Source: Naegleria gruberi
Lineage: Eukaryota
NCBI GenBank assembly: GCA_000004985.1
Contig: GG738921.1
Direction: 5' to 3' (one strand)
DNA length: 64,000 bases
The notes beneath the pieces are model-generated. The model was not told where the DNA came from, made no database searches, and saw only the letters and a program-made list of their open reading frames with translations. Of the stretch, positions 16,774 through 57,522 are shown in pieces. Within the stretch, counting starts at the first letter, position 1; each line of letters starts with the position of its first letter. The position numbers and the translations under genes are program-made.

Positions 16774-17817
16774 ATGTATCAAGATGCATGGGTGGAGGTG
16801 ATGCAATTTTTAGAGCCGATTGATGTGTTGGCGTCTCTACTCACTCTCAATAGAAATTTGTATGAATGGATTAGAAAATCTTCGTGTTTAACCTTTGATG
16901 ATATTTGTAATTATTGTGCTGGAGATGAAAATTCATCCCGAGGCTTGAAAATTTCATTTCATCATCAAATTGATGATCATGATAATTCAATGATTGATAA
17001 TGTAATTGATGATTATTATGTAAAATTGGTTGGAAATACTAAATATATTATTCGGTTGTACTTGGCAAAATTGGCCAAACGATTGGGAAATCAAAATCCT
17101 GTGGAGAGATCTGAGAAAGAAATTTCAAAAATTCTGAATTCATACGAATTGAAATTATTGAATTTTTATAGATCTGTGTTTTTTCCTCAATTTAAATATC
17201 AGGAGAGTGGAACGATTAATTATTTTGTTTTGGGAGATACAGGAATAGGAAAGACAACTTTCAGATATTTTATATGTTATGGAAAGAAAAAAGATAGTTA
17301 TTATGGAGCTACTGGAATTGATTTTCTTATCAAACGGTTTCAAATTGCTGATGAGATGAAATGTGAACATAAGATTTTTGACACTGCTGGTCAAGAAAGG
17401 TTCTTTGCTCCAAACATGATGGTGAAAAGACATGCAAGAAACGATAGGATGGGATTTCTTCTTTGTTTTTCAATGGTTCATCTAGTGTCGTTTGAGAAAT
17501 TGGATGAATGGTTTTCTGCTGTTAAGGAACATGCCCATCCAGAAATTTCAAATTATGGATTAATTGTTGGATTACATCCCCAGAATATTCGTTGGGTCGA
17601 AACTCCTAGCGAACCTCAGATCTGTGTTAAAGATACTGTAAAGAAATCGTATGCTCTTGGTAAATCAGTGTTTTTTGAAGCGAATTGCAATGAGTCCAAA
17701 CAAGTATTTGCTCCTTTTTGGTTTATTCAATTACAATGCACTTATTTCAATAATTGTAAAGAGAAAGACAAGGATCTAACACAAGTTAATAATTCTTGGA
17801 ACTGCTCAATATATTAA
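16774..17817 (+). CDS. F-box-like N-terminus fused to a Ras/Rab-like small GTPase domain (347 aa).
   Basis: N-terminal WVEVMQFLEPIDVLASLLTLNRNLYEWI fits the F-box pattern. G1 is LGDTGIGKTT and G3 is DTAGQE. There is no canonical NKxD motif. Single ORF from an ATG. Confidence 0.55.
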   Translation: MYQDAWVEVMQFLEPIDVLASLLTLNRNLYEWIRKSSCLTFDDICNYCAGDENSSRGLKISFHHQIDDHDNSMIDNVIDDYYVKLVGNTKYIIRLYLAKLAKRLGNQNPVERSEKEISKILNSYELKLLNFYRSVFFPQFKYQESGTINYFVLGDTGIGKTTFRYFICYGKKKDSYYGATGIDFLIKRFQIADEMKCEHKIFDTAGQERFFAPNMMVKRHARNDRMGFLLCFSMVHLVSFEKLDEWFSAVKEHAHPEISNYGLIVGLHPQNIRWVETPSEPQICVKDTVKKSYALGKSVFFEANCNESKQVFAPFWFIQLQCTYFNNCKEKDKDLTQVNNSWNCSIY

Positions 17818-17888
17818 AATAACATGAAATTCGCAAAATTTACAATCCTCATGTAATGTACATTTGAAATAAATTAAGGTTTTAAGAT

Positions 17889-19670
17889 TTATTGGAATGG
17901 TTCCAATTCAATTTCGAAAACTGAAACTGGTGTCTTCAAACCAAAGTTAGAAGCAACTTCTGGATGAATAATACCGAAAATACCAATCTTCTTGCCCTTG
18001 TAGAAGATATCAGCTTGTCTACCTGGCAAGAAGCTAATATCGTTAGATGGGAAAATTGAGAAACAGTGCTTATCAACAGATTGGCTATGTTCAACTTCGA
18101 ATGGAACAGCTAAAACTTCCATAACTCTGTCAACCAAACCGTGAATCAGTTCCAAACCCGATGTAGCAGATGAGAAGAGAGCAGCAAGTCTTCTATTATT
18201 CTTAGCACCAACATCCTTAGAATCATCAACTAAAATAACATCACCACATTCGAACAATTTGATTGGCAATGGCAATGACTTGTTGCTTTGCAAGGTCTTT
18301 AACAAACCTGGAATCAAACTAATTCTAGCAGTCTTGAATTCGAATGGACATGGTTCAGCAACAGCAATAGCAGTCTTACCATCGTTGACTCTGTTCATGT
18401 ATTTAAAGTTTTCTTCATCGTTACAGAGAATCAAGGACAAAACTTCAGTATATCCTGACATGGCGAGTTCAAGACGCACCATTTCTGACAATTGGTTCAA
18501 TTCATTTTCCTTACCAACAGTTGAAGACTTTGGGAAAGTAATTGGGATATTGTTGTAACCATGAGCAATGGCAACATCTTCCATAATATCACAAGCATGT
18601 AAAACGTCTGAACGAGTTGGTGGAGCAAGAACTCTCAATTCATTATTTTGAGTGACAGTAGCATTCAATTGCATCTTTGTCAAAATTTCTGCAATTTGTT
18701 GAGCAGATAAATTCAAACCAATTCTACTATTAATATAGTCGCTATTTGTAGTGAATTCAACATTATCAAGAATTGGAGTAGGTTCATCCTTTGATTGAGT
18801 CTTATCTTCATATACAATTTCAACTTGTTCAACTGTGAATGGAACAGAGCAATGTTCAGAGAACATGGTAACAACAGTATTCAAGACAACCTTAGCCTTT
18901 GTCAAATCAGTTGCAGTACATTCAATGAAAACATTCTTTGTAGACATTTTGATCTTTGAGTGATCTCCGTTAATAATTGGTGGCAAAGACAAAACTCTTC
19001 TCTTAGCATCTAAAATAACTGGATAAACTGGACTATCCTTGATAATCTTAGTGTAAGGGGACAAGTGCTTCATTTCACTTCCCTTTTTTTCAATAAAAGC
19101 GAAAAGTTCGTCAGCATCCATTAATTCAGTTCTATCCAAAGGAATGAATTTGATTTCTTTTGGTGGAAGAGCTTCATATGTGAAAGGACCTTCAATAACA
19201 TCCAAATCGTGAGTACCAATAGCAACGAGGGTTCTCTTTCTACAAATATTTTGATGAAGCTTTTCTTGTAAATCAATGAAACTATTGTAGGCATCTTCGG
19301 TGAAGGTGATATTTCTCAAGACAGCACCAACAACAAATTTACGGATTGATCCAGTTTCCTTTTTCACGTTAATCTTTAACAATTGTTTGGTTTTGGAATT
19401 ATCAATTTTATAGGTTGGAGCATCTTGACGACCGAGGAAAATGTTCAAAGCTCTGCTCAAGCCTTCTTCACAGAGTAAATCGTATCTGTTGGCTGGGATT
19501 TCAATCTTGTAGATGACTTCATCGGAGAGTTTGCTTGTATCCTTTGCAGAACCCAATTCCTTTTCCTTCATCAATCTTTCAGAGGTAACATCATCCAATT
19601 CAATACCAAAATCAAAACAAAGTTGCTCAAAATCGGCATCGGCTATAGGAGATATTTTTTTAATTTTCAT
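17889..19670 (-). CDS. FARSB: Phenylalanine--tRNA ligase beta subunit, cytoplasmic/eukaryotic type (593 aa).
   Basis: Strong collinear similarity to eukaryotic PheRS beta (FEQLCFDFGIELDDVTSE, IPANRYDLLCEEGLSRAL). Continuous ORF from ATG 19670 to stop 17889. Confidence 0.85.
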   Translation of the reverse strand: MKIKKISPIADADFEQLCFDFGIELDDVTSERLMKEKELGSAKDTSKLSDEVIYKIEIPANRYDLLCEEGLSRALNIFLGRQDAPTYKIDNSKTKQLLKINVKKETGSIRKFVVGAVLRNITFTEDAYNSFIDLQEKLHQNICRKRTLVAIGTHDLDVIEGPFTYEALPPKEIKFIPLDRTELMDADELFAFIEKKGSEMKHLSPYTKIIKDSPVYPVILDAKRRVLSLPPIINGDHSKIKMSTKNVFIECTATDLTKAKVVLNTVVTMFSEHCSVPFTVEQVEIVYEDKTQSKDEPTPILDNVEFTTNSDYINSRIGLNLSAQQIAEILTKMQLNATVTQNNELRVLAPPTRSDVLHACDIMEDVAIAHGYNNIPITFPKSSTVGKENELNQLSEMVRLELAMSGYTEVLSLILCNDEENFKYMNRVNDGKTAIAVAEPCPFEFKTARISLIPGLLKTLQSNKSLPLPIKLFECGDVILVDDSKDVGAKNNRRLAALFSSATSGLELIHGLVDRVMEVLAVPFEVEHSQSVDKHCFSIFPSNDISFLPGRQADIFYKGKKIGIFGIIHPEVASNFGLKTPVSVFEIELEPFQ

Positions 19671-20342
19671 TTTAATAAAAAATTCATTTTTAAAAGGACA
19701 CTATCCTGTTGGCTTTAAGCAGGCTTGGTCATCAGAGAAGATAATAATAATTATGTATTATATTTCCAGCTAAATTGTTATCCAGCCAAGACTGTTTATC
19801 TTTGAACCTATCTATTTTCAAATGAATTCTCAATTTCAAAACACTGACTGCTCTTACGGAATTTACTTGTAAATATATTCATCATCAAACAACTACACCA
19901 AAACAACAACTCTCAAATGTTTTTAAATCATAAGGATAATTATCAAAATCCTCATCAAAACAACAGGCCTCAAGAATGATCATTCCGTTAAATGGTCTAC
20001 TCCACCTCCCGTACATCAGGAGTCGCTTAAATTTACCATGTTACCTCTCGCCAAATGATCCGAGCTTCTTCACAGGCTATCCAAAGAGCCAATAGTGGTG
20101 TTTGGATGGAACTTTTACTCTATTCATCACTCAGTGTCGAGTGACCTTCTTTCGCGATAATGTTTAATATCCAAACAAAAACAAAACCAACAACATTAAC
20201 AGCAACACTGCTTCTCTGTTCTCCTAATAATCGATACTGAACCTCGGAACAAGTTATTAGAAGTTTAACCTTAAGCCTCATTGGATCTCTTATTAGGGTT
20301 GACAATCTTTAACTGTCTGGATATTAACAAATTTAAAAAAAA

Positions 20343-21881
20343 ATGTTTAATCCATTCTTTACACAACCTTCTGGTGGCGCCAATGTCAATCCATCCAATG
20401 TGAATGGTTCAAATCAATTCAATAATAGTGTTGCTGGTACGTATAACAGTTGTAGTAATAGCAGTGGGAGTACAATGCCAAACTTATTTTCAGACATGAT
20501 TAATGTGAACAGAAGAATGATGATGGGAGGATTTAGCATGCCAAGTGTGAATTTTGGTATGACAGTGATGGGTCAATCGAGCACTACTAATATGACAAAT
20601 AGTGGGATGCTTGGTGGAGGAATGATTATGCCATCAAGTAAAACACATGAAATGTGTGACTTGTCTGGAAAGTGGCAAGACAAATCTGGTATGGTTTGGC
20701 ACATTACTCAAAATGGAAATACGTTCCAAATGATTGAGGAAAGGAGTAATTTCACAGGAAAGGGTTCAGTTATTTCGAGCAATATTAATGGAACCGAATG
20801 GGTAATTCATGTGTCATTAACTGCCAGAACATTACAAGTTAATAATCGTTTACAAGCATTCGACAATAACATGCTGGTTGGTCAAAGGGATTTTTTCAAA
20901 TTAATTGAGAAATTTAACACTAATGTGAAACCATCCCCAAACAACGTGATAGATCCAAATTTGAGTTTGAAATTGGTTGGATCATCTTTTAAATCAAAGA
21001 GTGGCGAATGGCAAGTGGTAATGAAACTAAATGAAGGATTATACGCAATTAAGAATGGAAGTGGAATTATGAAGCATTTGTGTATCACCCCAGACAATAA
21101 TGGTCAATTAATGGTTTTCATTTCACAAGAAAACAAATCAGGTAAGGGAGAAGAGGCCCTCTTCTGTTTAACAGCCGATATCTCACACTTGTCTCTTTCC
21201 AATGGAGAAGTTTGGACCTTAGAGGCTCCTCCAACTATCAATTCCCATGTCTACTCATCAATTTATCAACAACCTCAAACTTATAGTCAACCAGGCTATC
21301 CAATGTATCAACAACCACCAACTCAACCAAATTACTACCCTCCAAACAATTCATATCCACAACCTCCAAATCTTTACCAACAACAACCTTTTAATCCTTA
21401 CCCACCACAATACGGGCATCACCATCAACCACAACCAAATTATTATCCTCCAAATAATTCATATGTTCCACCTCCGCAAACTGTCTCACCTCCACCAAAA
21501 ACTATTGGTTGGGTGGAAAGCATTTTGGCTTGTAAAGACGAGAGTTCGAATAGAATTCTTGAAAAAATTGATCAATATTCAAAGAGCCAATATGAAAAAT
21601 GTGAATCTCATCATCTGAAACAAATTTTAAAACTTTTAACTCATGGACCACACCAACGTGATGCAATCTCCTTATTAAGCAAAAATTTAGCAATTGGATA
21701 TTTAACTTGTAGTTCAGTAGCTACAGATATTGTTCCTTGCTTTGACTTTTTCTCTCATACTTTTGAATCAATCACTACTTTAGCTCCACAAATAACAGAC
21801 AGACGTCAAAATGCAGAAGTAATTTGTAAATGTTTCAATGATATTGATGCCAAGAAAGTGAGAGAACTGTTAATGAAATAA
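20343..21881 (+). CDS. Hypothetical protein with an S/N/G/M-rich N-terminus and a Pro/Gln/Tyr-rich segment (512 aa).
   Basis: Single long ORF from an ATG in A-rich context. Low-complexity block YQQPPTQPNYYPPNNSYPQPP. No recognisable domain. Confidence 0.45.
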   Translation: MFNPFFTQPSGGANVNPSNVNGSNQFNNSVAGTYNSCSNSSGSTMPNLFSDMINVNRRMMMGGFSMPSVNFGMTVMGQSSTTNMTNSGMLGGGMIMPSSKTHEMCDLSGKWQDKSGMVWHITQNGNTFQMIEERSNFTGKGSVISSNINGTEWVIHVSLTARTLQVNNRLQAFDNNMLVGQRDFFKLIEKFNTNVKPSPNNVIDPNLSLKLVGSSFKSKSGEWQVVMKLNEGLYAIKNGSGIMKHLCITPDNNGQLMVFISQENKSGKGEEALFCLTADISHLSLSNGEVWTLEAPPTINSHVYSSIYQQPQTYSQPGYPMYQQPPTQPNYYPPNNSYPQPPNLYQQQPFNPYPPQYGHHHQPQPNYYPPNNSYVPPPQTVSPPPKTIGWVESILACKDESSNRILEKIDQYSKSQYEKCESHHLKQILKLLTHGPHQRDAISLLSKNLAIGYLTCSSVATDIVPCFDFFSHTFESITTLAPQITDRRQNAEVICKCFNDIDAKKVRELLMK

Positions 21882-22055
21882 TACAACCACTTTCAAACTT
21901 TATCTCCTCATATATTATCTCACTATTATTTTGATTATTAATGATTCAAAAGAAGAAATGAATCAAATTGTTAAAGTTTGTTTATCTTGTGGATAAATAC
22001 TTTATTTATATACATCTCACTAATATTTGAATTCAAAATTGGAATCTCTTTGCAT

Positions 22056-22802
22056 TTATCTGAAGATGACACCACCACCGCCGCCACCACCGACAACAGC
22101 ACCACCAACTGGACCTGGACCACCAACTGGACCAACTGGACCACCTGGAATTGGACCTGGGCCACCAATTGGACCAATAGGACCACCAACTGGAGGAGGA
22201 ACACCACCAGCAAATCCAATGCCACCATCAATTCCACCAACACCCCAACCACCATAATAAGGAGCTCCATATCCAACACCAACACCATAACCACCGCCAT
22301 AACCACCTCCATAACCATAACCACCACCATAACCACCATAAATTGGAGGAGGAGGAGGAGGAGGAACACCATAACCATAACCACCGCCATATCCACCATA
22401 TCCACCATAAACTGGAGGAGCAACAACAACTGGAGGTGGAGGAGGAGGAAGATATTGTTGGAATGAGCTACCATAGTTTGAACCATAATTGCTTGGACCA
22501 GTGTAAGAGCTTCCATAAGAACTGTATGGATTTGAGTTGACACTATCTACTTGATTGAGATAGGATTGAGTATTTTGAGCATACTTGTTATAGTTGCCAC
22601 CTGAGGTTCCATAATTAGAACCAGCACCGCCATAAGAACCATAATTATTGGCATTGTTGAAGGAACCAGTAGATCCACCAAAACCACCATAGTATGGAGG
22701 AGGAACACCATAGGATTTTGTTTCAGTGTCTCCTCCTGCCAAGACAATCGCAAGGGAGCAGAGTGATAGCAATAAGCCAATAAGAATCTTTTCAGATATC
22801 AT
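22056..22802 (-). CDS. Secreted glycine/tyrosine/proline-rich structural-type protein (248 aa).
   Basis: Signal peptide MISEKILIGLLLSLCSLAIVLAGG, then GYGGYGGGYGYG, PPPPPPP and GPIGPIGGPGP repeats. The several ORFs on the opposite strand are mirror artefacts of the repeat. Confidence 0.55.
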   Translation of the reverse strand: MISEKILIGLLLSLCSLAIVLAGGDTETKSYGVPPPYYGGFGGSTGSFNNANNYGSYGGAGSNYGTSGGNYNKYAQNTQSYLNQVDSVNSNPYSSYGSSYTGPSNYGSNYGSSFQQYLPPPPPPVVVAPPVYGGYGGYGGGYGYGVPPPPPPPIYGGYGGGYGYGGGYGGGYGVGVGYGAPYYGGWGVGGIDGGIGFAGGVPPPVGGPIGPIGGPGPIPGGPVGPVGGPGPVGGAVVGGGGGGGVIFR

Positions 22803-23077
22803 ATTTTGTTTTTTTGTTTTGATGAGTAATTAGGAAGGGAGAGAAGGGTGGAATTTATTGAATTTTTGGAGCTTGTCAACTTCATAACTAAATGTGCAAG
22901 TATCTAATAGAGGAAAATGAAATGATGGGAATGATGGACCTATAAAGTAAAATTGTGTATAAATGTTGAATTACTTAAATGGAAATGATCAGATTGTTTG
23001 GAAACAAAGTCTCATTTTGTAACAAAGCAGTTTTTAAATTCACTACAATTTAAGAAAATTTCATATCTGAATGTGAA

Positions 23078-23129
23078 GCGTCGATGGTTTAGTGGTAGAA
23101 TACGGCGGGTTCAATTCCCGGTCGACGCA
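23078..23129 (+). pseudogene. tRNA-Gly(GCC)-derived 52-nt element lacking the entire anticodon arm.
   Basis: GCGTCGATGGTTTAGTGGTAGAATACGGCG|GGTTCAATTCCCGGTCGACGCA has an intact acceptor stem, D arm and T arm. The 19-nt anticodon stem-loop, present in the related copy at 58042-58099, is deleted. It shares about 12 nt of 5' flank (gtgaagcg) with that copy. Confidence 0.6.
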
Positions 23130-23331
23130 GCAGAAAGCAATAATTTTGTTCAATTAAAGCTTTTAATGTGAATTGTTTTTACACTACAATCTAGACATAC
23201 CATACTACACGAATCTCAAATACCACATTTTCATTCTTTATATTAGAAAAGATATTAATCAAAGTTAAGACCTCATTTTTTTATTGTGTTTTGTTTTTTA
23301 AAAAATGCAAGTAATGAAAATTTAACAAACT

Positions 23332-24586
23332 TTAATTTTCCTTGTCAATCAAGGCTTGATTCACAGCCATTACCACTCTGTAACGAGCTTGATTCTTGAG
23401 AACCTTTTCAACGGCTTGAGTTACATTATCAAGAGTAGTTAATTCAATTTGTGGCTTAATATTGTGATCAGCAGCAAATTGCAACATTTCCTTCATCAAA
23501 TCGGGAGTGGCACTTGCTGAACCAACAATTGCACGATCTTTGAGGATGAGAGGAAAAGCTGATGCTTTATATATGCCAGAATCAGCTATTTAAATTGTTA
23601 TTTAATTAATTTAAATTAATAATTAATAATTAATAATAATATTAGGAAATTAAAAGTAATTAAAAGTAATTGGAATGCAAAACAAGTTAAATTACTTACG
23701 AAGTCCTAACATGACCATCTTTCCGAATGGTTTCAACATTTGGATAAACTTATCATTATCAATATCAGTGCTAACAGTATTGAGAATCATGTCAAATTTG
23801 CATGAAAGAGATTTTGCATCATTTTCTTCTGTGTGGACAAAGAATTCATCAGCTCCAAAGGATCTGCATTCCTTCTCCTTATTTGCATTTGTGGAAAGGG
23901 CTACAACATGGAATCCCATCTTTTTAGCAAATTGGAGAGCTAAATGACCTAATCCTCCCAATCCCAATACTGCTACTACAAATTCATTTCGTTTCGAATA
24001 AGGACTTTCACGATAGTAGTATAATGGTGAGTAAACTGTGGCTCCAGCACACAACAATGGACTGGCATCGACAGATTTCAACTTGTCTGGAATTGGAAAA
24101 ACAAATCTAGCATCCCAAACAACACCTGTTTGAAAACCTCCTCCAATTGGTGCCTTATCGAAAGGTAAGGTCTTGTCACACAAATTTTCGAAATGATTCT
24201 TACAAGTTGGACATTCGAAACATGAAGTGTAGTGCCATCCCATTCCAACACGATCTGATACCTTAATCTTTGTTTCCTTCTCGACTTGCTCACCAACATG
24301 ACGAACAATTCCAACAATTTCATGACCAGGAATGCAACCAACATTATGCAATGAGTGAATATCTGATTATTTAATAATATTTGATTTGGATAACTACTAT
24401 TACTATTGAAAAATACTAACCTGTATAACAAATACTACTGGCAATTACTTCGACAAAAACCTCCAAAGGACCCAAACTTTTCACTTGTTGCTTGATTGGG
24501 CGAAAGGAGAATTCCTTTCCTTCTTCCTTTTCTGCTACTGCATAACCAGAAACTTGGATTGGTGGATTGATTTCCTTGATAGACAT
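23332..24586 (-). CDS. Zinc-containing alcohol dehydrogenase (MDR; cinnamyl-alcohol / NADP-dependent ADH-like). Three exons: 24586-24421, 24362-23700, 23585-23332.
   Basis: The catalytic Zn motif GHEIVG and the structural-Zn Cys cluster (CFECPTCKNHFENLC) are both present. Rossmann segment VAVLGLGGLGHLALQFAKKMG. Donors GTTAGT and GTAAGT; introns of 58 and 114 nt. Phases are consistent and the protein is about 360 aa. Confidence 0.8.
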
Positions 24587-25091
24587 GGCGATAGATACTT
24601 TTCTTGTGGATTTCTTTTTTTAATTGTTGGATTTAAACTAATGCAGAAGAATTCTTGCTTTTAAATGTTACAAATTTGGAGATTGTACATTCTTGCGACT
24701 TTATACGTGCATTCATACATTCGCACGAGGATGTTATTTATTTAATATCCACCGTTGAAACTTGTTAAATTTCCATACGAAAGAAACACATTATCTGACA
24801 TGTCTTTGTTAAGATTCATCTCATTTATGAAAGTTAGAATGACCTGTGAAAGGAAGACGAGGAGAATGGATATTTTGTGTTGTAATAACACATTTACAGT
24901 TACAATCCAGAATTTAAGGTCCGCATTCGATATCCTTTAGGAGTCGATTAGATCAGCAGCGGTTATTTATCTTTTCAAATTGACCACATCAACAATATCC
25001 TGATTTTATCATACTCTTTCCAGAGTGGATACAAGATTTCGTTATTCGATTCCCTTATGTTTTACCCAGTTTTTTCATTTTCTGCTTTTAC

Positions 25092-26089
25092 ATGGTTGCA
25101 TTCGTGTTGGGTTGTTTGAAATTAGAGGAGGCCAATAAGAATACCTGGTATTATAGAAGGTTTATTGCTAAAGAGACAGTTGATAATATTGATAAGGAAA
25201 CTTCCAAAACCAAATTAATATCACCAAATAATGAATTAGAAGAAGAGCAAGTTCAAGAGCCAATTATTGTTAAGGAATCCATGTTACAGAAATTCAAGAA
25301 TAAGTTTAACAATTTCAAAAGTCATGAAATGTTATCATCTCCAATTCCATTGCTGACATGTTTCCTCTACTTGATGTTGGGATCGAAACAAATCTTATTT
25401 GACGAATGTTTACCTCTCTTTTCAGTTACACCAAAAGAGTTGGGAGGATTAGGATTATCTTCATATCATCTTGGTTGTAAGTTTACAATTTTTGTAATTC
25501 TATAGAAATTAACTTTTACTTTCACATTTCAATAATTAACATGCAAATAGTAACTGGTGGATTTTTAGGATTTATCATATTTATGAATCAGGCATTCATC
25601 ACACCACGTGTTATTGCCAAATTCAGTCCATTGATTTGCTATAGGGTGAGTCTTGTTGTGGATATTGCATTCAATGTAATCTTTCCTGAAGTTATTTGGT
25701 TAATGGTTAGTGAACATGATCCAATTTGGAGACATGTATTGTTCTGGTTTGTTTTCGTATTCATTCTCCTATTAAGACAAGTTTCTAATGGGTACAGTTT
25801 CTTGGGAACTTTACTCATTACAAATAACAGTGTAACCCGAAAGAATTCTGGAAAATTGAATGGAACTTCTCAATCATTGGTTTCACTTTCGAGAATGATT
25901 AGTCCGATTGTTGGTGGGGCTATCTTTGCTAGCTCAACAGCTGTCTCTAAATTTCCAATTGACCATCGCACGGTGTTTTATGTTGTTGGTATAATAAGTG
26001 TAATTATGTTTTTCCTTTCATTGATTTTGAAAAAGTCAATCAATAAGCCAAAGGAAGAAGTTAAAGTGAATGAGGTAGCAAAAAAGTAA
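25092..26089 (+). CDS. Half-size major-facilitator-superfamily-like protein: only the C-terminal 6-TM half. Two exons: 25092-25476 and 25551-26089.
   Basis: Donor t|GTAAGT and acceptor caaatag. Six predicted TM helices. MFS-type loop motif NGTSQSLVSLSRMISPIVGGAIF. The roughly 500 bp upstream, before the ADH gene, is non-coding. Confidence 0.45.
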
Positions 26090-26191
26090 AGTCTGTCAAT
26101 TTTGGAGAAACTCTTCTTTTAGCTAATTTCCAGAATGTTGTAATCGGTAGGGAATTTCGAATACATTATTCGAATTCCAACATTAAAAAAA

Positions 26192-27118: not shown

Positions 27119-27157
27119 ATATCCTTTCGAATAGATTTTATTAGCACCAAACTATTC

Positions 27158-27982: not shown

Positions 27983-28178
27983 TTTTTTTTTGACAGTTTA
28001 CTTGAGTGAATCTATTCGATCAGCATGAGATTTTTATTCGATTTAGAAGTAGATTATGGAGAGTAAAAGTGCTCACGCAATCAATTCGCAGTAGTAGCAG
28101 TAAGTAGTAAAAGTCAATAGAACGCACGCAATTACTTGCTTTAACAATAATAAAAACAAGTTGCTGAAATCAAAAGTA

Positions 28179-28265
28179 TCCGATGAGACGGAATCGAACC
28201 GCCGACCACAGGATGACAGTTTTTCTTGCTACAGTCCCATGCTCTACCAGCTGAGCTATCATCGG
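28179..28265 (-). tRNA. tRNA-Tyr (anticodon GTA) with a 14-nt intron 3' of the anticodon.
   Basis: CCGATGATAGCTCAGCTGGTAGAGCATGGGACTGTAG[caagaaaaactgtc]ATCCTGTGGTCGGCGGTTCGATTCCGTCTCATCGG. The acceptor stem pairs perfectly and the intron position is canonical for eukaryotic tRNA-Tyr. Confidence 0.85.
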
Positions 28266-29375: not shown

Positions 29376-29473
29376 AAATGTTTTTAATGCAAAATATGAG
29401 TGCAATGTATCAATATTTCCTGTTATCTATTTCAGACTTACCATTTTCGTTCAAGTTTTTACAAAATAAAAAA

Positions 29474-45740: not shown

Positions 45741-46260
45741 TCTAGACTAGATAATGATCAACAACCTTGACCTAAATCCAATCACGGAAAAACTCAATGA
45801 GAATGGGCTATCCAAATCCAGATTTGGCCAAATGATTCGAAATGCATTATCTTATCCCTGCTATCCAGAGTTATATTCTACCCACTACCAAAACTAATTT
45901 CCCATTCTCCTACGCAACCAATAGACCTTAATAAATGTTAAAAACAATTTTGCACCTCCTCTTCCTTGTTGTACATTGGAAAGTATTCGAATATATTTTA
46001 CAAAATATCAATAGTACATTCTATTCGCTGTTTCGGCTGTTTCGTAATCTCTCATTTATTAAAAAAGGTGCGTCTTTCAATAATGGAGTTATTAATTTCA
46101 ACTAAATCAACCAGACGAAACAATAAGAAAGCAATTATGAATAATACCCAATGAAAGTCCAAGGCAGGATTTTAGATGGTACGCACTTCATTGGGAGTTT
46201 TCAAAAAACTATTAAAAGATCTTTGTGCATTCTCCAGATTTCCAATATTCAAAAAAAAGA

Positions 46261-48462: not shown

Positions 48463-48562
48463 TTTCGTAATTTATTAGAAATGTTGAAAGTTTTGTTATG
48501 AACCAATTTTGTAAAGTGTTGTGCTTAGTATTTGAAAATATTAACACAAGAGGGTAAAGAAC

Positions 48563-50629
48563 TTATTNNNNNNNNNNNNNNNNNNNNNNNNNNNNNNNNN
48601 NNNNNNNNNNNNNNNNNGTTTCTTTCACTCTTTCGAATATGTCAATCATATCATTCATGCAGTGAAGTTGAATTTTTCTGAAGAATGGCAAAAGATCAGC
48701 ATNTGAATCAATTAACCCTTGTAATTCATCATAAATTTCGTCCAATTTAGGATGATTCAACTCAAGAGGTGATCCTTTCGTTAAATAGGTTTTCTGAATG
48801 TGGATTGCAATCTTCTTTCTGTTTTTTGGTTTCGTCCTGGTGATCCTTTCCACATCCTTGTAGCAGAGAATCGGTTCTGGACAATAAGACCTTCTGGCAA
48901 AGTCCAATATTATCGTAAAGGTCTTCTTATTGGCCAAACATTGTTCCAATCCAGAATCTTGATTCCAATCCACATGTTTCTTATCCGATAACCAAGCATA
49001 CACTATTGGCAATGTTATACTAATCACCACATCCGAAATACTGTAAAACAGCAACACATTTCCATAAGGAATGAAAAAATCCAAAAATTTTGAAAATACT
49101 GGAATAAAACCAAACGCCACAAATATCACAATACTCAATAATTTCAATAACACCAAAACGAGTGTTTCCTTTCTCATATTCCACGTATCTCTATCTGCAA
49201 TTATACACAAAATAATGAGAATTACCTCAACAACAATGTAGAAAAATGTTTCAACTCCAACCAATATAAAAGTTGAATTGGTAATGCCACATCCTCTCTC
49301 CACAGTGAATAATCCACCATCATTAGTAAAGATGGTCGTTCCCTTTCTCAATTTCTGATCCCATTCAATTCCACCCATTATGAGAAATAGAATAACATGA
49401 AGTGAAAAGATAATGAAATAGCACAGTACAATAAAGAGGTTGCTCACGAAAAAGTTTAACACCTTTGCTCGTTTCATTTCCTTTTCAAAATCTTCCCTAG
49501 CTACAGAAAACCCATCACTGTATGTGTATGATTTGACATCGTCATCTGCCATTGAATATTCAGTAACATCAAAATCCACCATTTTGACAGACCGATCAAC
49601 GTCTTTTAAGGAGAAGTTACTAGCTGATTTCTTTTTAAGAAATGCCCTAGGGGAAGTGTTGCTACTTTCATTTCTTGTTAATGCTACTGAACTATCTATT
49701 GAAATATTCGAAACTGGACTAGTTGCTCCACTCGATTCATTCATAACTCCATTCGACTGCACATCTGCATTATTTTGAAACGCCTCCACAATGGTTGTAT
49801 TTGTCGATGTATTTGTTGTTGTATTATTACTAGACTTGCCATTTCCTTTTTTAGTTATCTTATGAGCTAAAGATTCCAAATTCGTTGTCGATTTTCCAAC
49901 CGTTCCACCAATCAACATTTTCATCTTTCTCAAATTCAACAAGTGTAGCAATACCAATCGATAACATCTAAAAATTGCTGGAAGAATCAACGAAGGAGGC
50001 AAGACGAAATAGGTCACCGAATAAATAAAACATGGATATTCTCTCCTACCAATTGCATATCTCAGGGAGGTCGAATAGATAATGAATGCACTTGCGAATA
50101 GTGTAAGAAACATGTAGACTAAACCTCTGGATTGAATGTGTCGAGAGTTTCGTTTCCAATACAAGCCGAAACATGTCAGAATGAAGAGAATGGAATAGAA
50201 AAACATGATTGCAATGGAAAACGAAACTGAAAGCCAAGTTTCTGGACAAATCCCATAAATTACTGTTGCATTAGGTCCGTATCGACTAAAATCGCCCAAA
50301 TTTAGAAGAATCGTATAACATCCATTGAGTGGATCTACAGTTGAATTAGTACTCGAGTTATTGAGTTGTTGTGAAGAGGATGATGAATTATCTAAATAGT
50401 TGTCAGCTTGATGTCGGGTATTATGTACTATAGAATAGTATTCTTTCGAATCGAATATACGAATCAATGAATTCATTTGAAAATTATCCTCTTCGATTGA
50501 CTGCGATGGAATTAATGTTTGATGACTGCAAATGCCGAATACTAGCAGTAGCACTGACAATTTTACAGCAATTTCCCTCAGCCGTTTGAAAGTCTGCTGC
50601 TGGCATTTGACAGGTTTAATTGCTGGCAT
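48563..50629 (-). CDS. Seven-TM receptor fused to a C-terminal RGS domain (7TM-RGS). The 3' end runs into an N-gap.
   Basis: Signal peptide and a roughly 130-aa ectodomain, then 7 predicted TM helices. An RGS box follows: FTIILDFARRSYCPEPILCYKDVERI...IHIQKTYLTKGSPLELNHPKLDEIYDELQ. Gap at 48568-48617 and a single n at 48703. Confidence 0.65.
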   Translation of the reverse strand: MPAIKPVKCQQQTFKRLREIAVKLSVLLLVFGICSHQTLIPSQSIEEDNFQMNSLIRIFDSKEYYSIVHNTRHQADNYLDNSSSSSQQLNNSSTNSTVDPLNGCYTILLNLGDFSRYGPNATVIYGICPETWLSVSFSIAIMFFYSILFILTCFGLYWKRNSRHIQSRGLVYMFLTLFASAFIIYSTSLRYAIGRREYPCFIYSVTYFVLPPSLILPAIFRCYRLVLLHLLNLRKMKMLIGGTVGKSTTNLESLAHKITKKGNGKSSNNTTTNTSTNTTIVEAFQNNADVQSNGVMNESSGATSPVSNISIDSSVALTRNESSNTSPRAFLKKKSASNFSLKDVDRSVKMVDFDVTEYSMADDDVKSYTYSDGFSVAREDFEKEMKRAKVLNFFVSNLFIVLCYFIIFSLHVILFLIMGGIEWDQKLRKGTTIFTNDGGLFTVERGCGITNSTFILVGVETFFYIVVEVILIILCIIADRDTWNMRKETLVLVLLKLLSIVIFVAFGFIPVFSKFLDFFIPYGNVLLFYSISDVVISITLPIVYAWLSDKKHVDWNQDSGLEQCLANKKTFTIILDFARRSYCPEPILCYKDVERITRTKPKNRKKIAIHIQKTYLTKGSPLELNHPKLDEIYDELQGLIDSXADLLPFFRKIQLHCMNDMIDIFERVKEXXXXXXXXXXXXXXXXXX
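48568..48617. other. Assembly gap (50 N).
   Basis: Run of n. Confidence 1.
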
Positions 50630-51038
50630 TTTTTTTAAGTGATCCTTTCATGCGTTTTTGTTTGTGTGCTTACAGCTGACATCAAACCTCGTTTGTCAGG
50701 TTTTTGGCCAATTTAGAAATTCAAATAGGCTCCCCAAAGGGAATGGTTCTTTATATTTCATCTTAATACTTTGCATCACCAATAATTCCACCTCCACAAG
50801 ACTATTCTCTACATGTGCATTAAACAATTTTAAAGAATGCCTCGTTGAAAAGGAAAATTATTGGAGGAGATAACTTCTACTACAGAGAAGATTTCTTATA
50901 GCGCAGTGTAAGGTTGAGAAGAAAGCCAGTTTGTTTAATGTACGTGGAGTTCGTTATTAACAAACTACACACATTAAGCAATGCACATCTGTTTCAATTT
51001 CTTTGTGGTTAAATTGATATCAATTAATTCGTATTTAT

Positions 51039-51815
51039 TTACATGTGAGAGTTGGATTTGATTCGTTTGATTTCAATGACTGGCTTTGGAACAATAGTTT
51101 GAATGGTGGCAGCTCTACCTCTTGTTGTTGTTGTTGAATTAAATTCGTATGAGAAGGCAGAAAATGAAAGTCTCTTCTTACTAGTAGTATGGAAAGAAGT
51201 GGATTTGAAATCTTGATTGGTGGCAGATTGTTGTGGAGGTGGAGTATTCAAAAGCTCGAATTGAGGAACTAACAGAGTTTGTGAATTGGAGCTCACAGCT
51301 GGGAATGTAAAGTTGCCAAGAGGAGAAATTGGTGGAGTAATTTGATGGAATCTTGTGTTGGTAGTGTGGACAATTGACTTGGAAGGACTCTTTTTGAGTT
51401 TTGGAATCGATGGCTCTACTTCTTGTTGTACCGAAATAATTGGAATGGTCAAGTGAAGATTGGAAGCTTGTTTCATCAGGATTGGTTGAAGTTTTGAAGA
51501 GGAAGCAACCTTTGATATTGGAGAGATGGAAATGGATTTGGTTCTGACGAGAATTGGTTTTGGTAAGGCAGCAACACCCTTAGAAGAAGCAACAGCAGGA
51601 ATGCCAACACTCTGATTGTCCCTCTCATATAAATTATGTAAATCAAGTATATTCTCATGCATTAAAAAGTATCCATTCAAATCCAGCACACAACCTTCAT
51701 ACGATTGTTCAGCCAACATCACAACACATGTCCACACGGAGACCAATAAACCTTTGAGTAATTGCCAGAGTGCGCTATAGCCGATTAAACTAGTTGAGTA
51801 AGAAGTGGAAGTCAT
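51039..51815 (-). CDS. Hypothetical Ser/Pro/Thr-rich protein with an N-terminal hydrophobic segment (258 aa).
   Basis: ORF from an ATG. Low complexity. No recognised domain. Confidence 0.35.
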   Translation of the reverse strand: MTSTSYSTSLIGYSALWQLLKGLLVSVWTCVVMLAEQSYEGCVLDLNGYFLMHENILDLHNLYERDNQSVGIPAVASSKGVAALPKPILVRTKSISISPISKVASSSKLQPILMKQASNLHLTIPIISVQQEVEPSIPKLKKSPSKSIVHTTNTRFHQITPPISPLGNFTFPAVSSNSQTLLVPQFELLNTPPPQQSATNQDFKSTSFHTTSKKRLSFSAFSYEFNSTTTTRGRAATIQTIVPKPVIEIKRIKSNSHM

Positions 51816-52463
51816 TCTTTATAGACAACAAAATAATTGTTCTTATTGTTTTTCTTGTTGTTGTTGATTTTTTTTTCTGTTATTGTCATCCAACTTGCGT
51901 TTGACTCTCTTTATGTTGGTTATGTGTTGGAGGAGGAGCTTGAGATGTGTAATGTCTTACTAGAGTTAAATCGTTATAAAAAAACAGAATAAGGACAAAA
52001 GAAAAATAAATTACATGCAAAGAATGATTCAGCAACTTATTTGGAATTTATTTTATGTTGTTATTGCTCAGCTTGATGTTGATAATTTCGGAATGGAAAT
52101 TTAATACTCAATAAGGATTTAAAAATGCATATATCTCCAAAGTAAATTGCACCAAGATAAAATCGACTAATTGAATACTGTATTATTGTGTCCATCTCGT
52201 TCCTTGAACAATTAATATTAATTTGTTCCACAAGAGGTGCTTTTTAGTTGAATCTTGAGAGATAATTTTAATCTCAAATTTCAAGAAGTTCTCCTGCTCC
52301 ATTGGAAGTGAATTAAGACACTCTCATAATTTTTACAAATGCTCCACAGATTCTCATTGTATTAAATGATTTCCCAATCATCATATTCTTCATCAAATAT
52401 CCCAATCACCCGATAATTAATTTATTTTGTTATTAAATTTAAGTATTTTTAATTTTATAAAAA

Positions 52464-53763
52464 ATGAACTCGCTTAGCCTTAATCTTACTTTGCATTGCG
52501 GAAGAGATCTTCCAAAGGTAAGAAGAAATTTCATCACAATTTGATTTTTTAATGTTTTAAAATTCTCTATTGATTTGTTTACCATATGATGATGTTGTTG
52601 TTATTAATTGCATTGAATTTATGATCATCATTTAGGCCGATTTGTTATCTTCGATTGATGCCTATGCTGTTGTTATTGTTCCGATTATTGGAGGACAAAC
52701 CAAAACATTTAAAACAAAATGTGTGCAAGATGACCCAAATCCTGATTGGGAATTTGATTTGTTCTGTACAGATGTGGATGGAACCAGAGATTGTCTTGTT
52801 GAAATTTGGGATGAAGATACTTTGAGAAATGAAAAGGTTTGCACTGCCATACTTTCTCTTGTTGAGTTGAAATCATCAGGCACATGGCTTGGAAAGCATA
52901 TAGTCTTGAAATGCTTATCTGGATTCAAACCATTCAAGGGAGCTAAAGAGTGCTGTATTATCGTATCAGCAAGTGCTCACATTTCTTTTGCTGACCTCAC
53001 TCGCAAAATCACATCTCCAAACAAGTATGTGGATCCATCAAAAAAGACTATTGTCTTCCCTTTCTCACCTCATGGTGACAATACTCAACTCTATATTAAA
53101 ATTTCAGCTGGAAAGAGATTCAAGATTTCGGTTTTGGACACTTCAGAATTTAGAACAAGACTTGTCATGTTTGAAGTTGCTGGAAAGAATATCACTTCTC
53201 AAATTATCAAACTCAAAGAACCAAAGAAAAAGTATGGAATTAGCTATTATAGAAAGATTAAGATGAAGAAGGCTGACATTAAATCATGGACAAGCGTCAA
53301 TCTTTTGGTTTCTAATTGTTCACTAGTTGCAACAAAGGGTGTGGAAGCTATTGTAAATGAACATGGCTGGTATGGATCCATGACCTTTGATCAAGCTAAA
53401 AAGACTTTGAAAAATATTATTGTGGATGAGGAATCTAAGAGTATTTTCATGCTGGAAAACAACTTTAGCTATATGGTGGACTTTGATTCAGACAACTTTG
53501 ACCAAAAGGTTTGTCTCTCTGATGAATACTCAGCTCAAGGATATCATGTCGAGTTTGTATATGCAAAGGGAAATAGATTGAGTATCACTTCACATGGAGA
53601 ACCAAGAGTTCAAACCAATACAAGAGTAGTATATAGATATTCTTCACAAGTGAAAGACTCTGAATACGGCACTCCATTCTTCCAATTCAGTGTTGAACTC
53701 TATCACAAGATACAACCACAACTTTACCAACTCAACAGCTATATTCCTTTAAGTTTGAATTAA
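52464..53763 (+). CDS. C2-domain protein (exons 52464-52517 and 52636-53763; 393 aa).
   Basis: Exon 1 (MNSLSLNLTLHCGRDLPK) ends at a GTAAGA donor. A 118-nt intron ends at atcatttag. Exon 2 (ADLLSSIDAYAVVIVPIIGGQTKTFKTKCVQDDPNPDWEFDLFC...) completes a C2 beta-sandwich signature. Confidence 0.65.
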
Positions 53764-56270
53764 ACTTTATTTTGTTGATCTATGAAAAACCTGCTCTTTA
53801 CACATGTATTGGAACATTCAAGCAAGATAGATTGTGTCGAAGGAGTAATCAAGGAAAGGAAATAATCATAATCACTCCTTAGTTCTTCAGATGCGAATGC
53901 AAAATTGAGAGCTGAGGATGAAACAGCCATTCTAACAATATCCTTATCATTTCTTAATCTATTAGATGCGAAAGCTAAAGATGTTGAATCTGAACTGACT
54001 GCCAATTTGACAATTTCTTCTGTATCTCTTATTCTATCAGATGCATACTTTAGCAGCGAACCACTATTCTTCAAAATGAGAAGCATAAACTTTGTGTCAT
54101 CATTTAAATTCAATAACAATTTCTCAATAATATGGCTATCAATACTTTCATGAAACCGTAAAATAGAGGCAATAATTGACTGTGATAGATTTTGTGGATC
54201 TACATGTGCAAAAATTCTACCATGACGTCCACAAGAGGTTAAAATTGTATCCAGTAAATCTTCATCCTCATAATTGAGCATTTCAAAAGAAAAATTGTCG
54301 TATGGGTAGAAAACACCAGAATATATCTTGATGATATTCACGTGACTTGAATTAAAGTAGGCAAGGGATGCTTCTTGTAGCCGTTTCACAAAGGGAAGGT
54401 AAATCTCTCCCATATTGCAAAAAAAGTAATTCGTACCCTTAACTGATTTGGAGCATGGATCCATGCAATAGAGAGCATATTCACCATAATAATCCAATAA
54501 TTTTTCATTGAAATGATCTCCATAGATGGAAATAAAGTATTCTCTATCAAAAAATAGCATTGGATGAGCATATTGCAATGAGGGTTTCTTTTGTGATGGT
54601 GGCCTGAGCTGTTGATGAAGTAAGACAAGCTCGGTCTTGAATTCATCCTTTCCAAAAGAACGACAAATAATCATCTCATAAACTTTTTCCTCTCTAAATC
54701 CTTGTTTCAATGCCATATTTACACATTCCTTAATTATTTCAATGTTTCCCCTTAATGATCTCGAAAAATTTGCAAATGAGAGAGCATTTCTGCTTGTGGC
54801 AAATCTCATAAATTCTGAATTGTTCTTTAAATTATCAGAAGCAAACTCTATTATTCTCCAATCAATATCATACATCTGTTTGACAAATTCAAAGTCATCT
54901 CTCAATTCCAAAGTAGCACACTTAAAAAATGTATAGCTCCTTCTCACCAACAGTTCAATAAGATGATGATTAGATCTTAATTCTTTAGGAAATTGCATTG
55001 CCGTTTTTAAATCAAATGCTGGTAGAATTGATTTGATGAATTCTGCATTCTTCCTTATTGAATCACCAAATAAATTCAATATACTTCCATTTTTAGATAA
55101 AAGTTCTTTAGCAACAGAAATGGAATTACGAATCTCTTTCGATACAAACTCAATCAATTCGTGTTCCCTCTTCAATATTGGTAGTATCAAATCTAAATTG
55201 CTCCTCAATCTCTCAGATGCATATTTGAGGGCTTTTGGGTAGAGTCTTGTGACAATTTGTAAAATCTCCTCGTCATCTACCTCAAAGGATCCATCAAAAA
55301 CATTTTTCAATACACCTAAATCATCTTTGGCATACCTGACTACTTCCTTGATGGTGAAAAATCGTTTTGGAATGAAAGAGGGTGGCAATAGCTCCTTCTC
55401 AACTACCATTCTCCAAAATTCTTCTCCTTGTGGTTGGTAGAGTTGTGAAAATTGCTTGTTGTTATCCTTGTTCATTACCAATTTGAGAGCTAGCTCTGAA
55501 TATATCTCCTTTTTAATCCATTTACATACGTTCAACTCTCCATTCTCCAGTGCAGTGCCTACTATCTCTGGGTCTGCTTTAAATTTTGAATTTGAATATC
55601 TGAGCACTGATCCGTAATATTTTACAGCTTGTAACACCAATTCCCTATTCGACTTGATTTCTTTTGCCTTCTTTTTCAATTCTGTATCATTTCTCAATTT
55701 TTCACACGTCACATATTTGAATATTCTTGTAGTAAACCTAAACAATCCAACAATTCCCAACTCATCCTCATCAGAAAAATCAATTTTTCTCCTCACTTTC
55801 TGCAAATCATTTCCACACTCAGATAAATCCAAAGCAGCTTCCAATAATTCTCTATCAGATCGTAACTCTTTACTGGCAGAACGAAAGCAAACCTGATGCT
55901 CCTTCACCACACTCATCATAAACTGCCTATCACTCGTCAATTGCTGTGATGCATATCTAATCAACCACCCTCTCAACATGATCAATTTCTTCATAAATCC
56001 AAAATCATTATTTTCAATCAATGGAAATCTTTTCACAAAACATCTCACCGAATAATTATCCTCACACTTTTTCAAACATTCAATATATTCCATCTTTTTT
56101 TTAAATAATGCTAATTGATCAATTAATCGGAATTTTCGTAATTTGTGGAAATTAATATTGTGTGAGTAGAGGTTGGAATTCTTGCATGGTTCCGAGAGGT
56201 CATCGAGTAGAATAATAACTGGTTCTCGCCATGATGATGATGGTACCATCATTGGCATGGTTGTGTCCAT
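53760..56270 (-). CDS. DUF4116-repeat protein (836 aa).
   Basis: It has at least 6 copies of the roughly 35-aa DUF4116-type motif, e.g. NRELVLQAVKYYGSVLRYSNSKFKADPEIVGTAL and TEEIVKLAVSSDSTSLAFASNRLRNDKDIVRMAV. Single ORF from an ATG. Confidence 0.55.
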   Translation of the reverse strand: MDTTMPMMVPSSSWREPVIILLDDLSEPCKNSNLYSHNINFHKLRKFRLIDQLALFKKKMEYIECLKKCEDNYSVRCFVKRFPLIENNDFGFMKKLIMLRGWLIRYASQQLTSDRQFMMSVVKEHQVCFRSASKELRSDRELLEAALDLSECGNDLQKVRRKIDFSDEDELGIVGLFRFTTRIFKYVTCEKLRNDTELKKKAKEIKSNRELVLQAVKYYGSVLRYSNSKFKADPEIVGTALENGELNVCKWIKKEIYSELALKLVMNKDNNKQFSQLYQPQGEEFWRMVVEKELLPPSFIPKRFFTIKEVVRYAKDDLGVLKNVFDGSFEVDDEEILQIVTRLYPKALKYASERLRSNLDLILPILKREHELIEFVSKEIRNSISVAKELLSKNGSILNLFGDSIRKNAEFIKSILPAFDLKTAMQFPKELRSNHHLIELLVRRSYTFFKCATLELRDDFEFVKQMYDIDWRIIEFASDNLKNNSEFMRFATSRNALSFANFSRSLRGNIEIIKECVNMALKQGFREEKVYEMIICRSFGKDEFKTELVLLHQQLRPPSQKKPSLQYAHPMLFFDREYFISIYGDHFNEKLLDYYGEYALYCMDPCSKSVKGTNYFFCNMGEIYLPFVKRLQEASLAYFNSSHVNIIKIYSGVFYPYDNFSFEMLNYEDEDLLDTILTSCGRHGRIFAHVDPQNLSQSIIASILRFHESIDSHIIEKLLLNLNDDTKFMLLILKNSGSLLKYASDRIRDTEEIVKLAVSSDSTSLAFASNRLRNDKDIVRMAVSSSALNFAFASEELRSDYDYFLSLITPSTQSILLECSNTCVKSRFFIDQQNKV

Positions 56271-56321
56271 CTCTTGCTTTATTTTTTTTAAAATTCTGTT
56301 TACAAAGAATTATTTAATGAA

Positions 56322-56438
56322 ATAATCCACTTCCAAGTACCCAAATGTTCATGACATATATAATAATGATGATGACAGGTTTAAAGTTCCCCAAAATTAT
56401 TTCCATGAACATTTGAGTACTTGGAAGTGGATTCTCAT
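56322..56438. repeat. Imperfect inverted repeat: about 32-bp arms with about 30/32 matching, separated by a 50-bp spacer.
   Basis: Arm 1 is ataatccacttccaagtacccaaatgttcatg. Arm 2 is catgaacatttgagtacttggaagtggattctcat. It lies between the DUF4116 gene start and the stop of the 56435-57522 gene. Confidence 0.6.
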
Positions 56439-57522
56439 CTTTGCATTTCAGTACTGTGTGAAATACAAGTATAGCCAGTGAGTATCATTATTTTAATTGG
56501 ATCGATAGTTCTATTCCATTCCAATAAGATACTCTCCTGAAAAACTTTAGTTTCATTTAGTCTCTTTAGGGCGCTTGTTTTAACAATGGATGCATTTTGT
56601 AATCGATGTAAAATGATTAGATTTTCAATGGATTTCTGTGCATTTTCAATGGAAATCTCAATTTCACCTCTTTTTAAATCAATCTTGTTGATTACGAAAA
56701 CTATCGAAAAAGAGTTTCGTTTTTTAAAACGAATTATATCACAAAGAATCTTGTTTAAACTTTGGACTGAATCCTTTTGATCCAAGCTACAAACAAGCAC
56801 GAAACACGACTGTTCCGTACACATTTTCCTAACTTCTTCTTCTCTTTTTTCCTTTTCGTCTTGCACTTCATAATAATCTTTTTCCATTATTAGAATGTTA
56901 AAATTACATTCAAATTATATTTTCGTACCTAGTTCTTTAACTCTAATAGTCAATTCTACACCATCAATCTCTAATTTTATCCTCCTTGAAGACAATATCT
57001 TCCTATTAGGCGATCTATCAAATAATCCATCAGCAACTCGCCTCACAATACACCTCTTTCCAACATTGTCAATTCCCAAAAGAAGAGCAAACATTTCCTT
57101 TTCTGGTTTGGATTTCATCCTTAATTTTCTCTTCATGCACGAAATTAAAACTTTTCTTCGCATTGAAACCTTTGGATTGGAAAGAATTTTGTAAATTGCT
57201 TCAAACTCATGATGGTGTTGTCTGAAATAGAGTGTATCCTTCATTTCCTTTTTCTGTTTCAAATTCTGTACATCTTTCCAGGTTTCCATGTCCAATTCCT
57301 TGTCCACATCACATTCATATCTAAACAATTTAAATTTCATCATGAAATAATTCCACCAAAACTCATCAAAATAATCATCAAGATCCTGCATATGCATTGC
57401 ATATTAAACATATCCCAATGATACCCAAGAATATCCAAATCATCATCTTGATCATTCCTAATAAACTTCATTATCAAGAGAAGAATTTCTGGAGGTAAGG
57501 AAGTAAAAAGTTCTCGTTTCAT
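56435..57522 (-). CDS. F-box-like N-terminus fused to a divergent Ras-like GTPase. There is a 51-nt intron (56878-56928) and a frame break near 57400.
   Basis: ORF 57340-57522 begins MKRELFTSLPPEILLLIMKFIRND (F-box pattern). ORF 56915-57397 carries the G1-like LLGIDNVGKR. Donor cta g|GTACGA and acceptor aaaaag|at restore the frame across an in-frame TAA. The 3' exon has NKID (G4) and TSAL (G5). The F-box and GTPase ORFs overlap in different frames. Confidence 0.45.

Follow-up and report, generated by a model that had tools for sequence, protein, structure and literature searches.

Two Ras superfamily loci in the window

The window considered here is a stretch of 64,000 nucleotides of nuclear DNA from contig GG738921.1 of Naegleria gruberi (assembly GCA_000004985.1), with a guanine plus cytosine (GC) content of ~33 %. 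It holds two loci related to small GTPases, named locus 1 (positions 16774-17817) and locus 2 (positions 56435-57522); a tblastn search of the window disclosed GTPase loci at these two positions only, and no third. Both had been described in an earlier note as a recurring fusion of an F-box-like segment with a Ras-like GTPase. According to the analysis presented here, they probably represent two unrelated expansions of the Ras superfamily, specific to amoebae or to Naegleria, which both display an N-terminal extension derived from an F-box or resembling one, locus 2 being a likely decaying copy. The central idea of F-box-GTPase fusions was already published for N. gruberi by Herman et al. 2021 (BMC Biol 19:142, Additional files 4 and 10), and the view of the earlier note that such fusions are not a standard family must be given up, as the class is described there and locus 1 is catalogued.

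Locus 1 was an intact, catalogued gene of a divergent Rab-like subgroup bearing a CaaX box. Its product corresponded over the full length to the record XP_002669889.1 / EFC37145.1 from a 207-kb scaffold, 'rab family small GTPase [Naegleria gruberi]' (100 % identity, 100 % coverage), while an exact-protein look-up in the assembly collection gave no match. The GTPase part matched Pfam Ras (PF00071) with 60.9 bits over amino acids (aa) 151-259. Compared with solved structures, the C-terminal 202 aa were closest to Ypt6/Rab6 (E = 1.6e-14, aa 152-339), followed by Rab27, Rab33, Sec4, Rab10 and Rab8; since the best relatives were all Rabs, the domain was considered Rab-like. The complete set of G1 to G5 motifs was not found: G1 and G3 were present, while G4 and G5 were replaced by unrelated residues (Table 1). 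The tail was a CaaX box (CSIY) and not of the Rab-type CC or CXC.

Relatives of locus 1 were collected by an exhaustive HMMER search with a profile of the N-terminal 145 aa. Members from N. gruberi were XP_002673455, XP_002670133, XP_002672932, XP_002672868 and XP_002670760; outside this species, the family comprised two metagenomic proteins and one protein from N. lovaniensis, named 'F-box domain-containing protein' in UniRef. Two more came from Table S8 of Herman et al.: XP_002681067.1, the model of which had been corrected, and a newly modelled gene on ACER01000495. This CaaX-bearing subgroup thus includes at least nine N. gruberi genes. G4 and G5 were lost in every member and several had also lost the P-loop or the DxxG/switch II, the full DTAGQE motif being displayed by locus 1 alone. 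A C-terminal cysteine motif was encountered in all eight N. gruberi sequences aligned, in the form of a four-residue CaaX in seven of them (P0003 ends with CFI). When the three closest paralogues were compared, conservation was higher in the N-terminal extension than in the nucleotide-binding motifs. The available text of Herman et al. contained no mention of a family-wide loss of G4 and G5, which is a minor new point of the present sequence comparison.

The extension and the GTPase domain of locus 1 were separated by a linker specific to the family, with two conserved helices, GN.KYFIRLYLLKL..KLGN.NP and ELKLLNFYRSVF. The linker matched no known domain, and its AlphaFold2 (AF2) model (predicted local distance difference test, pLDDT, 70-78) gave no fold match. 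Resemblance of the first helix to residues 119-160 of human ZCCHC8 was not significant (E = 0.15 against PDB sequences) and is probably due to chance.

Locus 2 did not form one open reading frame (ORF) and consisted of three coding pieces on the minus strand. Piece 1 (57522-57388) encoded MKRELFTSLPPEILLLIMKF... in frame A. Homology to the family followed frame A up to CIC and frame B from DLDDYF onwards, the switch being located at tgc ag|gat ctt, inside the F-box-like region, between helix 1 and the remainder. An intron was rejected as the cause of this switch: every GT/GC-AG pair that opened the frame also removed conserved family motifs, which is why a deletion of one nucleotide was preferred. 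Since helix 1 and the GTPase part stand in different frames, locus 2 as assembled does not encode the fusion. Pieces 2 and 3 shared one frame and were separated by a predicted intron of a length divisible by three; because these 51 nt keep the frame, a reading based on ORFs only shows a nonsense codon instead of an intron. Their removal led to a length like that of the paralogues, and the repaired and spliced protein displayed a single continuous match with Pfam Ras (PF00071; aa 147-313, 39.6 bits).

Closest to locus 2 were Ras-family entries of Table S8 (BLASTP E 1e-18 to 1e-5, 22-28 % identity), with which it was collinear from the N-terminus to G5. Members of this Ras-like subgroup, of which N. 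gruberi possesses a dozen genes or more, share the layout LPxEIL..ILsF, variable insert, NFQS[IL].K, F[ND]EFWW, RK-rich linker, Ras domain and CaaX. Several of these relatives were flagged as putative pseudogenes by Herman et al., N-terminally truncated members among them.

Nature of the N-terminal extensions

Similarity of the locus 1 extension to F-boxes emerged at the level of its family. PF00646 matched seven out of 11 N-termini in one common register (best E = 5.1e-6), and the N-terminus of the corrected XP_002681067 reached 21.7 bits, above the curated cut-off of 20.5 bits. The profile of the 11-member family was compared by hhalign with a reference alignment of 15 F-boxes, all of which (15/15) pass Pfam. 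This comparison gave a probability of 78.5 % and E = 1.7e-5 over 34 columns; the score of 25.6 was attained by none of 150 column shuffles (null 8.0 +/- 1.7, maximum 13.2). A smaller profile built on five members was not significant against the F-box. Other Naegleria Rab-like subgroups displayed clear F-boxes at the same position (six of six members, best E = 2.4e-9).

In the family of locus 2, PF12937 (F-box-like) matched four of nine N-termini (best E = 0.013), PF00646 two and PF13013 one (E = 0.0053), none of them above threshold. Piece 1 of locus 2 itself matched PF12937 over aa 7-26 only (E = 0.039) and carried the Leu-Pro dipeptide typical of F-boxes (L9-P10, in LPPEIL). The family profile aligned with the 15 F-boxes at a probability of 88 % (E = 3.1e-6) over 18 columns, corresponding to helix 1 only; its score of 30.3 was again reached in none of 150 column shuffles (null 8.1 +/- 1.7). 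Members display an insertion of 10-30 aa after helix 1, and removal of this insert extended the alignment to 34 columns while the score became no higher. Helix 1 alone is therefore demonstrably F-box-like in this family. An F-box-type helix 1 in the Ras-like subgroup, of which the profiles give a hint, is a minor new point. Searches of PDB sequences with the N-terminal profiles of both families (hmmsearch) gave no F-box match better than E ~1; FBXO42 appeared with E = 1.5 and through helix 1 alone.

A number of observations weigh against an F-box at these positions. Neither protein of the window passed the Pfam thresholds: the full-length locus 1 protein gave no F-box match at E <= 1, its isolated N-terminus obtained 15.7-16.5 bits with PF00646 (E ~0.01, aa 4-38 covering positions 7-40 of the 43 in the profile) and so fell below the 20.5 bits required, and locus 2 obtained 13-14 bits with PF12937 for a cut-off of 24.3. 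In the hhalign register, Met1-Tyr2 of locus 1 occupy the place of the Leu-Pro dipeptide, which is nearly universal among F-boxes, and throughout the family Met1 stands there with Tyr, His or Asn next to it. In the family of locus 2, the profile score comes from helix 1 and the region of helices 2 and 3 contributes nothing to it. A linker motif in common was considered as a connection between the locus 1 extension and the Rab-like subgroup with clear F-boxes; it was dropped, since the match of the extensions was not significant (hhalign E = 0.19). The AF2 model of the isolated locus 1 fragment displayed one continuous helix from aa 2 to 36, the sole weak matches of which were coiled-coil-like.

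Much of this would suit family-specific helical extensions engaged, for instance, in dimerisation, coiled-coil formation or effector binding, resembling F-boxes by descent or by chance and not binding Skp1; both groups would then be atypical GTPases or pseudoGTPases with no link to Skp1-Cul1-F-box (SCF) ligases. We regard this alternative as rather unlikely. It leaves aside profile-profile scores that lie far beyond the shuffle null in both families, the common register of the PF00646 matches in relatives of locus 1, one of them above the cut-off, and the clear F-boxes encountered at the same place in other Naegleria Rab-like proteins, whereas the continuous helix was modelled on an isolated fragment from just nine sequences. 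The N-terminus of locus 1 is thus best viewed as a divergent F-box-derived segment devoid of Leu-Pro, an assignment supported at the family level by sequence profiles and not by the structure attempt.

Probable decay of locus 2

Locus 2 is most likely an uncatalogued, divergent member of its Ras-like subgroup, recently inactivated or in the course of decay. Its P-loop ends with GKR instead of GK[S/T], arginine occupying the place of the Ser/Thr that coordinates Mg2+. G3 was lost, as the earlier note had correctly recognised: KELDYYE (KEL|DYYE) replaces DxxG. G4 (NKID, 56678-56689) and G5 (TSALK, 56564-56578) were retained on the minus strand; here too, the set of G motifs was incomplete. The sequence CISH (56456-56467, minus strand) aligned with the terminal CaaX of the paralogues (e.g. 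CTLH, CSLM) and was followed by six additional codons (STEMQR), which suggests the loss of a stop codon and the disabling of a predicted prenylation signal. The open pieces of 160 and 150 codons have chance probabilities of ~2e-6 and ~4e-6, respectively, in DNA of ~30 % GC; being far beyond chance length, they indicate that any decay is recent. Such decay is in line with the evolution by birth and death that Herman et al. reported for these families.

The repaired protein found no match in a word-indexed search of a 5.8-billion-protein collection, not even itself, and therefore no protein model appears to have been deposited for the locus. Neither did an exact look-up of its ORFs in the assembly collection return a match, and its sequence strings were absent from Table S8.

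Locus 2 could also be a live gene, in which the frameshift would be an assembly error or translation would start at the methionine at 57397, giving a Ras-like protein without helix 1. The missing base adjoins a GG run and could be an error of the assembly at this run of G, a point that likewise counts against decay; the two long frames are open in AT-rich DNA but for this one base, the intron is well formed, and G4 and G5 were kept. Such a live gene is nonetheless unlikely, given the lack of both a protein model and an ORF record and the presence of several independent degenerate features (GKR, loss of DxxG, a linker insert of 25 aa and six codons after the CaaX). Similar members truncated at the N-terminus are, in addition, those flagged as putative pseudogenes in Table S8.

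Relation between the two loci

The proteins of locus 1 and locus 2 displayed no significant similarity (best BLASTP E = 2.7) and their N-terminal profiles did not match each other (hhalign 2.6 %). One being Rab-like and the other Ras-like, the two loci are, from these comparisons, neither paralogues nor copies of one fusion. An alignment of the GTPase domains and a search for further members had been suggested in the earlier note; relatives of both loci were encountered in N. gruberi, in two separate families. The layout of an F-box-like segment followed by a small GTPase does recur, because two separate families display it and not through gene duplication. At the level of family profiles this layout stood for both loci; for the two proteins taken individually, no F-box passed the Pfam threshold, and only locus 1 presents the fusion in one intact ORF, helix 1 of locus 2 being out of frame. 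In the F-box profile check suggested in the earlier note, seven of 11 N-termini of the locus 1 family matched PF00646, one of them above the cut-off, and neither window protein reached the threshold. The P-loop context said to be common to both was indeed present (LGDTGIGKT and LGIDNVGKR), yet it corresponds to the generic Walker A pattern (LGxxxxGK).

Table 1. Positions of the features of locus 1 and locus 2 in the window
Feature	Position	Strand	Basis
Locus 1: complete, intron-less coding sequence, 347 aa plus stop	16774..17817	+	ORF
Locus 1: divergent F-box-like segment, aa 1-40 (MYQDAWVEVMQFLEPIDVLASLLTLNRNLYEWIRKSSCLT)	16774..16893	+	PF00646 sub-threshold and family hhalign
Locus 1: family-specific linker, aa 41-145	16894..17208	+	Family alignments
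Locus 1: Rab-like GTPase domain, aa 146-325	17209..17748	+	Pfam Ras 1.4e-16; Ypt6 1.6e-14
Locus 1: G1 P-loop GDTGIGKT, intact	17233..17256	+	Family alignment
Locus 1: G3/switch II DTAGQE, intact	17380..17397	+	Family alignment
Locus 1: G4 position, GLHPQN in place of NKxD	17569..17586	+	Family alignment
Locus 1: G5 position, EANCN in place of SAK (EAN for SAK)	17677..17691	+	Family alignment
Locus 1: C-terminal CaaX box CSIY, predicted prenylation site	17803..17814	+	Sequence motif
Locus 2: unannotated, disrupted Ras-like gene with F-box-like start	56435..57522	-	ORFs, paralogue alignment
Locus 2: piece 1, frame A, MKRELFTSLPPEILLLIMKFIRNDQDDDLDILGYHWDMFNMQCIC	57388..57522	-	LPxEIL..ILsF ... 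NFQSIxKK region of paralogues
Locus 2: F-box helix-1 motif LPPEILLLIMKF	57463..57498	-	PF12937 E = 0.039; family hhalign
Locus 2: frameshift, one base missing versus family reading ...CIC[R/S] DLDDYFDEFWW...	57385..57387	-	Homology frame switch
Locus 2: piece 2, frame B (DDYFDEFWW motif, linker with 25-aa insert, P-loop, beta strands 2-3)	56929..57385	-	
Locus 2: degenerate P-loop GIDNVGKR	57053..57076	-	Alignment
Locus 2: predicted intron, 51 nt, GT..AG, phase 1, 20 % GC	56878..56928	-	Sole in-frame stop between pieces 2 and 3
Locus 2: piece 3 and stop	56435..56877	-	Alignment

Gene neighbourhood

Locus 1 was flanked by genes for an RCC1-repeat protein (14367-15677, plus strand), the beta subunit of cytosolic phenylalanyl-tRNA synthetase (17889-19670, minus strand) and a DUF4476 protein (20343-21881, plus strand). 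No sign of functional clustering between the GTPase gene of locus 1 and these neighbours was observed. The neighbour set is of eukaryotic nuclear character, with a phenylalanyl-tRNA synthetase beta subunit of eukaryote type, an RCC1-like protein, a DUF4116-repeat protein and an F-box/leucine-rich repeat protein.

An ORF of 515 aa at 10720-12267 (minus strand) displayed a clear F-box (PF00646, 29.7 bits, aa 96-133) and leucine-rich repeats. It is a canonical gene of FBXL type and an example of a Naegleria F-box above threshold. A protein of 836 aa with seven DUF4116 repeats was encoded at 53760-56270 (minus strand, like locus 2), and its start follows locus 2 downstream at a distance of 165 bp. 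Table S8 also includes an N. gruberi Rab5 that is joined to DUF4116 and to a kinase domain.

Possible function and significance

The descriptive identity proposed for the two loci is held with fairly good confidence; a role in ubiquitination is a different matter. That locus 1 acts as an SCF receptor is the likeliest working model, yet a tentative one, which we place clearly below an even chance. In this mechanism, its protein would be prenylated at the CaaX box and thereby anchored to membranes, the F-box-derived N-terminus would dock on Skp1-Cul1, and the whole would serve as receptor subunit of an SCF ubiquitin ligase, analogous to Rab40-Cul5 and RhoBTB-Cul3. The degenerate Rab-like fold, in which the phosphate-binding elements were kept and the guanine-specificity elements are gone, might then be a partner-binding or switch module. 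The delivery of a GTPase module to SCF ligases, put forward in the earlier note, is the same inference as that of Herman et al. 2021, who proposed 'GTPase-dependent ubiquitination' for Naegleria.

Slightly more doubtful is an extended version, in which the Ras subgroup of locus 2 would possess a genuine split F-box (helix 1, an insertion of 10-30 aa, then NFQS[IL].K / FxEFWW as helices 2 and 3); in parallel, the subgroup of locus 1, with NKxD and SAK lost throughout, would provide membrane-anchored SCF receptors built on a pseudoGTPase or on a fold of altered nucleotide specificity, as in RhoBTB3.

F-box proteins are often auto-ubiquitinated, which lends some weight to an F-box acting in cis, that is, recruiting the SCF to ubiquitinate the GTPase itself for rapid regulated turnover and without any role as substrate receptor. 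By analogy, the F-box of TbFRP, a FYVE-F-box-Rab-like GTPase of Trypanosoma brucei, was tied by its authors to the rapid proteolysis or turnover of that protein (PMC3593210), but a cis role appears improbable here, since many paralogues of locus 1 lack nucleotide-binding motifs and their most conserved parts are the F-box-like region and linker, a pattern that fits a scaffold or receptor better than timed destruction.

If assembly with Skp1 and Cul1 is true, Naegleria would possess dozens of cullin-RING ligase receptors based on GTPase folds, a third, independently evolved and far larger case beside Rab40-Cul5 and RhoBTB-Cul3. It would also become a natural system for nucleotide switches, or their dead descendants, gating ubiquitination at membranes. 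If the split F-box of the Ras subgroup is true, the coupling of GTPases to SCF would reach the Ras family, beyond what the available listing of Herman et al. 2021 includes. Relative to that work, two further minor elements were added here: family-level statistics for a divergent F-box without Leu-Pro in the CaaX-bearing Rab-like subgroup, and, at 56435-57522, an uncatalogued member that is probably in decay.

Comparison with known systems

Herman et al. 2021 described one Rab-like subgroup with a CaaX motif and reported that some members carry disrupting mutations, read as birth-and-death evolution. Locus 1 agrees with this subgroup in its N-terminal extension, Rab-like domain, CaaX box and birth-and-death pattern. 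XP_002669889.1 appears in Table S8 as 'Rab' beside its paralogues, the column for additional domains being blank; the F-box call for locus 1 differs in that it rests on the family-level profiles of the present analysis.

The Ras subgroup represented in Table S8 by XP_002673059.1, XP_002681395.1 and XP_002669178.1 shares with locus 2 the elements LPxEIL..ILsF, NFQSI.K and F[ND]EFWW. Further common traits are the RK-rich linker, NKxD and SAK within the Ras domain, and a cysteine motif close to the C-terminus. Locus 2 departs from this subgroup by its frameshift, GKR, absence of DxxG, linker insertion and non-terminal CaaX. In the available parts of Herman et al. 2021, this subgroup was not labelled as F-box.

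TbFRP is comparable in having an F-box N-terminal to a Rab-like domain, in coming from a discoban protist and in its proposed link to ubiquitination and turnover (PMC3593210). It differs by an N-terminal FYVE domain binding phosphatidylinositol 3-phosphate and by its restriction to Euglenozoa, no N. gruberi orthologue having been found in the searches of that paper (PMC3593210). Pfam scans of loci 1 and 2 gave no FYVE match, and the window proteins are further distinguished from TbFRP by tails of CaaX type.

Rab40-Cullin5, with its SOCS-box Rab, and RhoBTB-Cullin3 also join a Ras-superfamily domain to a module binding a cullin adaptor, and both are experimentally supported GTPase-fold substrate receptors of cullin-RING ligases (PMC8129794, PMC3812982), whereas the Naegleria receptors are putative. 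RhoBTB3, an atypical 'Rho-related ATPase', parallels the loss of guanine-specificity motifs in the family of locus 1. In these systems, the module is a SOCS box or a BTB domain instead of an F-box and is located C-terminal to the GTPase domain. Pfam scans of loci 1 and 2 displayed neither a BTB nor a SOCS match, so that Rab40 and RhoBTB are functional analogies only.

FBXL2 is a prenylated F-box protein and a membrane-anchored SCF receptor. Proteins of this type resemble locus 1 in combining an F-box with a C-terminal CaaX box, while their substrate-binding domain consists of leucine-rich repeats and not of a GTPase fold.

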